From Oculatellaceae cyanobacterium bins.114 (GTDB lineage: Bacteria; Cyanobacteriota; Cyanobacteriia; Elainellales; Elainellaceae), in contig JANRJA010000020.1 of the NCBI GenBank assembly GCA_033764315.1, positions 1 through 30,562 on the forward strand: 30,562 bases of DNA, given 5' to 3'. The notes under the pieces are model-generated. The model was not told the DNA's origin. It did not search any database and saw nothing but the letters and a program-made list of their open reading frames with translations. This document shows, piece after piece, positions 18,475-20,591 of this stretch; position 1 is the first letter of the stretch; every line of letters begins with the position of its first letter. The translations under genes and the position numbers were made by a program.

Positions 18475-18864
18475 GTGAACGACAAAATGCGTATTGGAGA
18501 ATTAGCCAAACAGGCAGGCGTGACCCCTCGCACTATTCGCTATTACGAGAGCTTAGGGCTACTCGGGCCAAGCGAGCGTGAGGGCAAAGGGTTTCGTTAT
18601 TATACCGAAGCCGAACTAGAGCGGTTAGAAAAAATTCACGCCTTTAAAGAGTTAGGACTGACCTTAGACGAAATCGCAGATGTGATGCCCTTGTATTACG
18701 CCGACCCAACTCGTCTAGAAGGCAAACGCAAAATTGTGGAAATTCTCAAAGGGCACCTTCAAGACACCGATGAAAAAATCCAGGCGTTAATCCAATTTCG
18801 CTCTGATTTGCAAAGCAATATCGATCGCATTCAACAATGGATCGATGCCCAAGTCGAAAGTTAG
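18475..18864 (+). CDS. MerR-family transcriptional regulator (no cysteines)
   Basis: MRIGELAKQAGVTPRTIRYYESLGLL...RYY...LGLTLDEI, then a coiled coil. Start GTG 18475 or ATG 18487. Confidence 0.95.
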   Translation: MNDKMRIGELAKQAGVTPRTIRYYESLGLLGPSEREGKGFRYYTEAELERLEKIHAFKELGLTLDEIADVMPLYYADPTRLEGKRKIVEILKGHLQDTDEKIQALIQFRSDLQSNIDRIQQWIDAQVES

Positions 18865-18882
18865 TTGTTTTTTAACCCAAAA

Positions 18883-18898
18883 TTAACGTTTACGTCGG
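18883..18898 (+). promoter_or_regulatory. Second copy of the operator motif
   Basis: TTAACGTTTACGTCGG, lying inside the hairpin TTTAACCC (18871-18878) / GGGTTAAA (18898-18905). Confidence 0.45.
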
Positions 18899-18959
18899 GG
18901 TTAAATTCTAATAGAGACTGATTGGCTACAAAGTTGTTCTATCCTTGTGTATTTTCTTT

Positions 18960-18975
18960 TTAACGTCAACGTAAA
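18960..18975 (+). promoter_or_regulatory. Third copy of the operator motif, overlapping an RBS
   Basis: TTAACGTCAACGTAAA overlapping AAGGAG (18974-18979), with ATG at 18989. Confidence 0.55.
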
Positions 18976-19294
18976 GGAGCTATAAGCCATGAATTCTCCT
19001 CAGTTGGGCTTTACAACCCATCGCTGTTGAGACAGCCTAACCAGCATCCTTGCTTCTATCTTCAGACACGGTCTATTCCGATCGCTATCAACGAGGCACT
19101 CACTATGAATGGGAGCCGCTGCCCTAGAAACCTGAACACCTGGTTATAGAGCAATGGTTAATGGTCATGAAGTCATGCCTGACAACATTCTTGCTGCTTT
19201 ATCTGAGACGAAGCAACACTTCTACTCCATTCCCAGACAAAGCCTAAGACACAAAGCAACAAATCCCTGATTCACGTTTTAAGGAAACTGAACC

Positions 19295-20287
19295 ATGAAA
19301 ACTCGCAAACTTGGAAAAGACTTAGAAGTATCAGCCCTTGGACTTGGCTGCATGGGCATGTCGATCGCCTATGGTGCAGCGGATGAAACCGAGTCAATCG
19401 CTACGATTCATCGGGCATTAGAGCTAGGCGTTAACTTTTTAGATACAGCGGATGCCTATGGGGGTGGTGCCAATGAATTGTTAGTCGGACGAGCGATCGC
19501 CGATCGGCGAGATCAAGTGATCATTGCCACTAAGTTTGGCATTGCTGGATTCACCGTTACAGAGAATGGGCCCAGTTTTAATGTCAATGGCACACCAGAC
19601 TATGTGCGGCAGGCTTGTGAGCGATCGCTGCAACACTTAGGGACTGATTACATCGACTTGTATTACTGTCATCGCATTGATCCCGCCACCCCAGTTGAAG
19701 AAACGGTCGGAGCGATGGCAGAGCTAGTGCAACAAGGCAAAGTCCGATATTTAGGATTGTCTGAGGCGGCGGCTGACACAATTCGTCGTGCCCATGCGGT
19801 TCATCCCATTACGGCATTGCAGAGTGAATATTCTCTGTGGGCGCGGGATATCGAAGCTGAGATTTTGCCGACTCTGAGGGAACTGGGGATTGGGTTAGTG
19901 CCCTACAGCCCGATCGGGCGAGGATTTTTGTCGGGACAGATCAAAACCCCTGATGACTTTGCGGCTGATGATTTTCGTCGCACTCTGCCCCGCTTCCAAG
20001 GCGAAAACTTTTACAAAAATCTGGACTTAGTTGAACAGGTAAAGGCGATCGCGGCTGAAAAGGGAGCGACTCCCGGACAGCTTGCCCTGGCATGGCTGCT
20101 GGCTCAAGGAGAAGATACAGTGCCCATTCCTGGTACAAAACGTCGTACCTATCTCGAAGAAAACATCGGAGCCATTGATCTGACCTTGACTTTAGATGAC
20201 CTGCATCGCCTTGAAGCAGTGATATCTAAGGATCTTGTGGCGGGCGATCGCTACTCTCAATCGTTAATGCAAACAGTAAACCGATAA
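19295..20287 (+). CDS. Aldo/keto reductase (AKR13-like), copy 1
   Basis: [43 protein letters not shown]. Confidence 0.96.
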
Positions 20288-20300
20288 CCAAAGATCACCT

Positions 20301-20591
20301 ATGCCGATGTGCTGTTTTTTGGACGTTCCCAAAACCACTGATTTAGAAACGATGAAAGGCTGTTACAACCAAAACCTTGCCTCTGCTGAGTCGGCAGACT
20401 TCTTACTCTCATCTAGACCAGCTTTGATGGGTCTTGAGGGCAATACAAAACGGGGCAATCGTAGAACTCTCGCAACGCTTTTGGTTCAACTTGAGGAAAC
20501 CGAAGAGCAGATCGAAATTTTGCAACGGTTTCAATCAGACTTAATCAAAGAAATTACGAGGATTCGGCAACAGTTGCCCAAAGGCTTCTGA
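20301..20591 (+). CDS. HTH-less MerR paralogue (C-terminal coiled coil only); small protein or pseudogene
   Basis: 41-aa ungapped match to the C-terminus of the MerR at 18475 with 16 identities; no HTH. Confidence 0.6.
   Translation: MPMCCFLDVPKTTDLETMKGCYNQNLASAESADFLLSSRPALMGLEGNTKRGNRRTLATLLVQLEETEEQIEILQRFQSDLIKEITRIRQQLPKGF

Follow-up and report, generated by a model that had tools for sequence, protein, structure and literature searches.

Plants and animals are well known to regulate some transcription factors through a copy of the factor's own dimerisation module that is encoded by a separate gene. The microProteins that work in this way, for example the plant LITTLE ZIPPER proteins directed against HD-ZIPIII factors and the Id proteins directed against bHLH factors, are homologous to the dimerisation module of their factor alone, titrate it into heterodimers that do not bind DNA, and are often induced by their target. 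In the mer operon, the co-regulator MerD is a relative of MerR whose gene belongs to the operon under MerR control and which is considered to lower the expression of that operon, and the MerR-family regulators NmlR and AdhR carry a sensing cysteine. BldC of Streptomyces is reported to be a 68-residue MerR-like protein that keeps the DNA-binding domain and lacks the coiled-coil and effector domains (PMC5859096), and OvmZ/OvmW of actinobacteria is reported to join a tiny MerR-family helix-turn-helix (HTH) protein of 60-80 amino acids to a partner of ~213 amino acids without known domain (PMC11264864). Here we describe a cyanobacterial locus in which the other part of a MerR protein is found as a gene of its own. 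In a stretch of 30,562 nucleotides from Oculatellaceae cyanobacterium bins.114 (contig JANRJA010000020.1; hereafter the window), a MerR-family regulator of 129 amino acids without any Cys (MerR129; merR, 18475..18864, plus strand) is followed 1.4 kb downstream by a small open reading frame (ORF; 20301..20591, plus strand; 96 amino acids from the ATG at 20301). By homology, this ORF is a member of a rare, conserved, multi-copy family of proteins that consist of the MerR dimerisation helix (alpha5) only and are associated with detoxification operons.

An earlier note made from the letters of this stretch had drawn attention to the resemblance between the two genes, and its basic observations were borne out. 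Both ORFs lie where it had put them on the plus strand, and BLASTP aligned residues 83-123 of MerR129 with residues 52-92 of the small ORF without a gap, as it had stated, at 16/41 identities and 27/41 positives (E = 2e-07 in this single comparison). MerR129 comprises an HTH, a hinge and a dimerisation helix (approximately residues 83-123) and has no effector domain; its chain stops six residues past the helix, and its Pfam matches were MerR_1 (4.3e-24), MerR (2.9e-15) and MerR-DNA-bind (5.6e-11). The small ORF, which the note had called headless, matched nothing in Pfam or NCBIfam and lacks the N-terminal winged HTH of the MerR family, its modelled N-terminus being unstructured. A profile of eight MerR129 orthologues, run with filters off against the six frames of 20200-20700, matched through positions 81-123 alone, in the frame of the ORF (25.9 bits). 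Positions 1-80 gave nothing in any of these frames, and there is therefore no frame-shifted remnant of an HTH. A tblastn search of the small-ORF region with MerR returned no match at E ≤ 10, the profile run being the more sensitive of the two. The long C-terminal helix of the family is present in the small ORF (residues 50-91, recognised by hhalign; its antiparallel packing is seen in silico only). In its sequence, the ORF resembles a microProtein: it is small, its homology to the larger factor is confined to the interaction module, and it is devoid of the functional domain.

The resemblance was specific to one MerR subfamily. For the small-protein family we used an alignment of 31 sequences (A2) and a starting profile of 11 members. 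When the 31-member family was compared by hhalign with the eight orthologues of MerR129, the probability was 97.3% (E 2.5e-11) over 48 columns (positions 77-124), from the 'DPTG..GKRK' turn to the helix end, and the control against a second, Cys-bearing MerR subfamily of 137 amino acids (n = 4) returned 23% (E 8.8e-4) over 21 columns. Six-frame searches with the family profile covered the 57 genomes of the window's GTDB family, to which the search at the level of the GTDB order added no others, and matched 23 places at E ≤ 1e-3. Eleven were family members at 73-90 bits, in the window's own genome (G000), G001 and G005 (window ORF, 73.6 bits, E 6.8e-20), and the other 12 were the C-termini of MerR frames of 131-145 amino acids, at 25-44 bits; other MerR paralogues of these genomes went unmatched. 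At E ≤ 1e-6, a class-wide sample of 401 genomes yielded 40 places, namely 21 family members and 19 MerR129-type MerR frames. In both searches, every match outside the family fell on the C-terminal part of this one MerR subfamily, and the similarity therefore goes beyond a general likeness among coiled coils. Conversely, the MerR129 profile scored 31/31 family members. On these comparisons, the small ORF is a true and specific homologue of the MerR129 dimerisation helix without the HTH. The shared part, ~48 columns from a G[KD][RQ]K turn through the helix, corresponds to alpha5 (the C-terminal part of Pfam PF09278, MerR-DNA-bind) of the cyanobacterial MerR129 subfamily (127-131 amino acids), with the same heptad pattern, a conserved Arg in mid-helix and, by prediction, packing in the homodimer register. 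Unlike MerR129, the small proteins have no winged HTH, hinge or effector loop, reach one third to three quarters of its length, and form a clade of their own with their own invariant motif, LEExEEQ.

A search of 1.84 billion representative proteins with the 11-member profile recovered 32 at E ≤ 1e-3, of which 29 are 47-102 amino acids long; the other three are long proteins (630-1509 amino acids) in which short stretches were matched. The small proteins share the core L..LL[VI]xLEExEEQ[IL][ED]xLQQxRxxLxxxI, and L60, L64, E65, E66 and E69 are invariant in the 31-sequence alignment; the window ORF has this core with all five invariant residues. All ten members that we looked up are single-member clusters, unnamed or annotated as 'hypothetical protein'. 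Within its own genome, the window ORF matched the C-terminal 40 residues of two further short frames, one on contig C192 (73 amino acids, 57% identical) and one on C212 (41%); the first is a far closer match than the neighbouring MerR (37%, E 0.01). G001, a genome of the same genus, has seven family ORFs of ~55-95 amino acids, and G005 has one. A word-indexed homologue search found two proteins only (the window's own and P0002); being insensitive, it was replaced by the profile search. Scans of a genome collection and of metagenome contigs, in which confirmation was by tblastn with the window ORF alone, confirmed 3/161 stretches (two contigs of a Leptolyngbya sp. metagenome-assembled genome and one of Cyanobacteria bacterium FACHB-502) and 1/234 stretches, respectively.

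The family evolves as a protein-coding gene under purifying selection. The ratio of nonsynonymous to synonymous substitution rates (dN/dS) was 0.13-0.19 for the azoreductase-linked orthologues of three genomes (adjacent azoreductase-like gene, 0.075-0.15) and 0.24 for a TetR-linked pair (adjacent TetR gene, 0.10), and the proportion of synonymous differences (pS, 0.31-0.60) was set against a nonsynonymous proportion (pN) of 0.07-0.24 in orthologue pairs. Thus, conservation, an intact frame and dN/dS below 1, which the earlier note had proposed to look for, were all found, with 29 clusters of intact short ORFs and dN/dS of 0.13-0.24. Between the window copy and the G001 copy, dS was saturated and the core had a pN of 0.31 and a pS of ~1.0; their N-terminal halves were under weak constraint (28% identity, pN/pS ~0.64). 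Paralogues resembled each other at the DNA level (70-83% identity) in the coding core only, with frame and stop position kept. They have no common flanking DNA, and a miniature inverted-repeat transposable element or mobile cassette was rejected on that ground. The genes are tightly packed, with an ATGA overlap with the upstream azoreductase gene at two loci (L026 and L089) and a 3-nt gap to a GNAT gene at another (L027). Judged by these patterns, the small ORF is a real gene for a small protein, which we infer to be translated, and a short ORF resembling a gene fragment turns out to be a conserved gene. In a tree of 43 columns, too few for internal order, one branch (99/97) parted 31/31 small proteins from 25/25 MerR helices; the window ORF is therefore not a recent duplicate of the neighbouring merR. 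Recent local duplication of merR was rejected on this separation and on the missing HTH remnant, and the earlier picture of a paralogue born at the locus gives way to that of a member of a multi-copy family.

The family was present in five of the 401 cyanobacterial genomes, namely G000 (three copies), G001 (seven), G005 (one), G081 (five) and G103 (five; its GTDB order comprises two genomes). By gene content, it is a family of a few Leptolyngbya-like cyanobacteria among the genomes searched, with 1-7 copies per genome in operons for quinone, carbonyl, electrophile and alkylation detoxification. We inspected 21 loci with their flanks and counted a regulator if it lay within 4 kb. A MerR of any type was found at 8/21 loci: the MerR129 type at three (the window, L025 of G001 and L079 of G103), a 137-amino-acid type (MerR137) at four (L026, L032, L034 and L089, orthologous loci of azoreductase and small gene beside copper-ATPase, cupredoxin and RND genes), and a MerR of 166 amino acids at one (L082). 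TetR genes lay near four loci (L027, L029, L031 and L033), AraC/Ada genes near two (L081 and L087) and a LysR gene near one (L028); six loci (L030, L080, L083, L084, L085 and L086) had none of these regulators. Immediate neighbours were mostly genes for detoxification or redox functions, including Flavodoxin_2/azoreductase, aldo/keto reductase (AKR), short-chain dehydrogenase/reductase (SDR), GST, cupin, SnoaL-like, GNAT and ABM monooxygenase genes and an Ada-like gene with a DNA-damage oxygenase gene. The synteny with merR and AKR that the earlier note had envisaged held in part. Three genomes, which belong to two GTDB families, have the small gene in a MerR129 operon, in the order merR, carboxymuconolactone-decarboxylase family gene (CMD), small gene, methyltransferase, SDR and AKR at L025, and merR, small gene and AKR at L079, whose genome belongs to a different GTDB family; 13/21 loci are without any MerR. 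A MerR129 orthologue was found in G000, G001 and G103 (61% identity), and at least 18 genomes of the 401-genome sample had a MerR129-type helix match and no member of the small family. In the MerR129 operons of six relatives (L007, L008, L010, L011, L012 and L014), there was nothing at the position of the small ORF.

As for the regulator itself, MerR129 scored under every NCBIfam equivalog cut-off. The best equivalog was ZntR, at 82.1 bits against a cut-off of 167.95, and the NmlR model NF041849 gave 59 bits against 175; NCBIfam MerD models also matched weakly. The protein is Cys-free, as the earlier note had observed, and no column of its eight aligned orthologues is an invariant Cys. It has neither the C-terminal Cys/His metal loop of the metal-sensing regulators CueR, ZntR, MerR and CadR nor the conserved sensing Cys, or a score above the NF041849 cut-off, that would place it with NmlR and AdhR. 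The latter are nevertheless comparable as short MerR proteins without effector domain that control aldehyde or carbonyl reductases; their sensing Cys is without counterpart in MerR129.

A candidate operator for MerR129 was found around its gene. The 30.5-kb window contains three copies of the motif ACGTNNACGT, where 0.12 would be expected, and 0/100 shuffles reached three. The box at 18441 is upstream of merR, and those at 18886 and 18963 are in the gap between merR and the first AKR gene. Box 1, ACGTTAACGT at 18441-18450, is contained within the near-palindrome CTTGACGTTAACGTTAAAG, and the hexamers TTGACG and TAGAAC stand 18 nt apart in the merR upstream region; the interval 18438..18468 (plus strand) is thus promoter- or operator-like, a function suggested by its letters. 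Boxes 2 and 3, ACGTTTACGT at 18886-18895 and ACGTCAACGT at 18963-18972, span 18886..18972 (plus strand), presumably the MerR-controlled promoter region of the downstream operon. In the MerR129 loci checked, a box was present upstream of merR in 9/9 and one or two boxes downstream in 9/9, with T[TGA]ACGTnnACGT on both sides of merR in the window, L025, L079, L007, L008, L010, L011, L012 and L014. We consider T[TGA]ACGTnnACGT the candidate operator of the Cys-free MerR129 subfamily. Because the same boxes flank merR in all nine loci, MerR129 probably regulates both its own gene and those downstream, among them the small ORF of the window. Only ~7 nt separate the end of the -10-like hexamer of box 1 from the GTG with which merR starts, and the merR mRNA of the window may therefore be leaderless.

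With the family alignment, AlphaFold2 modelled the small protein as one helix at residues 50-91 with a predicted local distance difference test score (pLDDT) of 87-99, and residues 1-49 scored ~50. The helix, a MerR-alpha5-like core encoded by 20448..20573 (plus strand), is also delineated by the family alignment and hhalign. The N-terminal ~49 residues are poorly conserved and probably disordered, and the rest of the protein is predicted to be one amphipathic helix of 42 residues. In a look-alike search of the ESM Atlas with residues 44-96, feature scores were ≤0.81 and the structural matches were single helices of unrelated proteins. We modelled the complex of MerR129 (alignment of 8) with small-ORF residues 44-96 (alignment of 31). 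The interface score ipSAE was 0.65, 0.65 and 0.66, the best of three controls giving 0.00; the mark set for this score was reached by 116/157 solved complexes and 2/215 mismatched pairs. Runs agreed in ≥96% of contacts, and pLDDT of the partner was ≥83. The lowest-error contacts between MerR and the small protein (102-74, 105-71, 98-78, 91-85 and 116-60) have sums of ~176, which together with the homology offset of 31 corresponds to the two-fold symmetric antiparallel register of the MerR homodimer. The residues named in the predicted interface were L57, L60, L64, E68, L74, L81 and I85.

The reading that we favour, tentatively and at somewhat below an even chance, is that the small ORF encodes a MerR-derived protein without DNA-binding domain that acts through coiled-coil pairing, here forming one-headed, inactive dimers that provide negative feedback. 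The helix of the small protein would pair antiparallel with alpha5 of a MerR-type regulator, which in the window would be MerR129, and the resulting one-headed heterodimer could neither hold the palindromic operator nor distort it. As part of the operon that MerR controls, the small gene would dampen the induction of that operon, a negative feedback of the microProtein type. The analysis shows a specific homology, the conservation of the family under purifying selection, the order of the genes and a pairing in silico; that the two proteins bind in vivo, and in which direction this would act, we infer. Several results weigh against this reading. The ACGTNNACGT box was missing from 10/10 other small-ORF loci checked, and control of the remaining family copies by MerR129 through this box is improbable. 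MerR-linked copies are not consistently the most MerR-like, since P0022 ranked 2nd, the window copy 7th and the G001 copy 22nd of 31 in likeness to MerR129. A profile search of PDB sequences gave 15 matches at E ≤ 10, none of them MerR but generic coiled coils or kinases (best 4c1a, E 0.053), and Pfam MerR-DNA-bind was weakly matched by 3/11 members (best E 0.013). A MerR129 orthologue was absent from G005 and G081, 2/5 of the family genomes, where the best MerR was 33-40% identical, and there is the absence of MerR within 4 kb at the majority of the loci noted above. The invariant E65, E66 and E69 were not named in the predicted interface, although an unnamed residue is uncertain rather than excluded, and something besides the coiled coil may constrain them. 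Further, MerR homodimers have been solved and the partner is homologous to the true partner; the pass of the complex model may only reflect resemblance to those structures, and it shows likeness and not binding. The heterodimer model proposed in the earlier note gave the antiparallel pairing that was sought, ahead of its controls, with this reservation, and the dominant-negative role is favoured by homology and predicted pairing and disfavoured by the genomes without MerR129 and the loci without MerR.

The main rival is a helix derived from MerR alpha5 that homo-oligomerises or pairs with paralogues and has a MerR-independent role in detoxification operons, possibly as an adaptor or sensor that uses the invariant acidic face and the variable tails; we consider it possible, with a probability clearly short of even. 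The points just listed on the 2/5 genomes, the 13/21 loci and the three glutamates all speak for it, as do the family-profile searches of G005 and G081, which gave no other protein with a homologous helix, and a detoxification theme that recurs among the neighbours whatever the local regulator. The passing MerR129 heterodimer prediction argues against it, as do the three genomes, from two GTDB families, that carry the small gene within the operon of MerR129; moreover, the 8/21 loci with a MerR within 4 kb have to be seen against only ~5-7 MerR-like matches in each of the five family-bearing genomes. A wider form of the microProtein reading appears doubtful at present, though not fanciful. It pictures a bacterial family of MerR-derived helices, up to seven copies per genome, with each copy wired into a different MerR, TetR, LysR or AraC/Ada detoxification operon. 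Jointly, the copies would titrate MerR-type regulators by coiled-coil exchange, giving cross-talk among electrophile, quinone, metal and alkylation stress, with the Cys-bearing subclades (N-terminal MPxCC and C-terminal CxAC) gated by redox state or electrophiles.

The remaining explanations are less probable. A trans-acting thiol sensor for the Cys-free MerR, in which N-terminal Cys would react with electrophiles and the helix would relay the signal by heterodimerising, appears unlikely. It would suit a MerR129 without Cys, effector domain or invariant Cys column, and operon enzymes that fit carbonyl and quinone stress. The three cysteines reported earlier are present in the window ORF, at residues 4, 5 and 21. 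Its N-terminus is MPMCCFLDVPKTTDLETMKG, those of P0002 and P0011 are MPMYCFLDVLETTHLEEMKG and MPACCFLDVLKTIHPEEMEG, and the syntenic G001 copy begins MPTGC; thus MPx[CY]CFLDV is common to three proteins and Cys5 is kept in 4/4 of the MPxxC subclade. This conserved N-terminus favours the ATG at 20301 over the gene caller's start at residue 7, which gives 90 amino acids. Across the family, one or more Cys outside the core are found in 24/31 members, and CxAC is the C-terminal motif of a TetR-linked subclade. However, 7/31 members are Cys-free and no Cys column is shared family-wide; Cys5 is conserved in the four-member subclade only, and the three cysteines are not a feature of the family. In addition, the sole Cys of the MerR-linked G103 copy lies within the helix, and the N-terminal half combines the weak constraint described above with a pLDDT of ~50. 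The ≥18 genomes with a MerR129-type regulator and no small gene indicate that this MerR senses without the small protein, contrary to the idea of a sensor on which it depends. A thiol role may apply to subclades; on the sequences compared, it is not the common function of the family. A functionless, decayed tandem duplicate of merR, the case that the earlier note had named as its refutation, is very improbable. The locus is rearranged, with a gene remnant in the merR-AKR gap, and most relatives' MerR129 operons have nothing at this position, which would fit decay. We rejected it on family conservation, the tree and the missing HTH remnant; furthermore, the helix is 37-39% identical to that of the neighbouring MerR, as compared with 94% identity of merR between G000 and G001 (dN/dS 0.028). 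Hardly more credible, and if anything less so, is that the conserved stretch acts as a regulatory element at the RNA or DNA level, or is a repeat left open by chance. A terminator-like hairpin does lie within the ORF (20382-20398), in a scan that found 3 such sites against 6.0 in shuffles, but pS far exceeded pN in orthologue pairs, conservation follows a hydrophobic heptad, and the paralogues keep frame and stop with DNA similarity in the core only.

Set beside the described systems, the small protein shares its concept with the eukaryotic microProteins and differs from them in kingdom and fold family; binding is predicted and inhibition proposed, and the family also occurs without its presumed target. 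MerD resembles it as a MerR relative within a MerR operon, but MerD has retained its HTH and works at the operator, whereas the small protein is HTH-free. BldC and the small protein are both one-module MerR-derived mini-proteins, and BldC is the reciprocal truncation, the family being coiled coil only. The OvmZ/OvmW pair is reported to be a two-gene regulator in which a tiny MerR-family protein goes with a partner lacking a recognisable DNA-binding domain, the difference being that its tiny protein is the HTH part and that of the window the helix part. In a full-text literature search of a limited library, we found no MerR-derived coiled-coil-only protein, no such regulation of MerR, and nothing relevant on a MerR-type regulator with an AKR in cyanobacteria. 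If the pairing is real, MerR regulators would have in these small proteins a natural 'dominant-negative' module that can evolve and that complements the head-only BldC, and the 129-amino-acid MerR, an operator with a 10-bp core and a helix of 50-90 amino acids would make a simple test system.

From 18475 to 23220, every gene of the window lies on the plus strand. The merR-AKR1 gap is 430 bp, and only 13 nt separate the stop of the first AKR gene (AKR1, 19295..20287, 330 amino acids; Pfam Aldo_ket_red 5.4e-82) from the start of the small ORF. Gene order thus agrees with the earlier statement that the small ORF lies inside MerR's own operon, in which it would be co-transcribed. A consensus scan of 18250-23400 for promoters and terminators found 3 and 3 sites against 5.8 and 6.0 in shuffles, none at the MerR boxes, and was uninformative on operon structure. 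Downstream of the small ORF are genes for a flavodoxin-like-fold NAD(P)H oxidoreductase of 236 amino acids (NQO/KefF-like, 20662..21372; Pfam Flavodoxin_2 3e-50; NCBIfam KefF and NAD(P)H oxidoreductase models match under their cut-offs), an SDR of 253 amino acids (21457..22218; adh_short 1.5e-60; 89% identical to its G001 orthologue) and a second AKR of 326 amino acids (22240..23220; Aldo_ket_red 2.3e-80; 93% identical to its G001 orthologue), which ends the same-strand run. The two AKR genes are paralogous, and the best NCBIfam model for both is methylglyoxal reductase YdjG, far under its cut-off; only the second has a same-place orthologue in G001. A divergent gene for a DUF4189 secreted protein (17873-18271, minus strand) lies upstream of merR, an arrangement also seen in G001 (L025, 5069-5509).

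The gap behind merR contains the 5' remnant of a CMD gene (18990..19097, plus strand). The G001 CMD protein matched it by tblastn with 8/13 identities at gap positions 195-233, and blastn against G001 gave 78% across 55 nt and 94% across 18 nt. Box 3 with the ATG that follows it as start context, and ~36 codons, can still be made out, and the remainder is gone; the CMD gene after merR is intact in L025, L010, L011 and L012. The window operon is therefore remodelled, with AKR1, the small ORF and the NQO-like gene replacing the CMD gene and the methyltransferase gene present in G001.

Some family loci showed further regularities. At L026, L032, L034 and L089, which come from four sources, YdcZ-type exporter gene(s), an azoreductase-like Flavodoxin_2 gene and the small ORF are conserved, and in three of them the upstream azoreductase gene overlaps the small ORF stop to start or lies ~33 nt off. 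The gene for the 137-amino-acid, Cys-bearing MerR comes next, preceded by a DUF1349 gene in two loci, and copper P-type ATPase, cupredoxin and RND/HlyD genes surround them. The subclade of L031 (4301-4513), L033 (4516-4731) and P0013 has an extended helix with a C[VN]AC end; at L031 and L033 the small gene lies directly upstream of the TetR gene, with a ChrR-type cupin gene ≤1 kb from the latter. At L033 only, an SDR gene stands between TetR and cupin, and GST genes were seen at L033 alone. At L087 of G081, a family member (4449-4718) comes first and is followed by an Ada-like methyltransferase/AraC fusion and a 'damaged-DNA oxidative demethylation' oxygenase, a context that extends those of the family from redox stress to alkylation stress.

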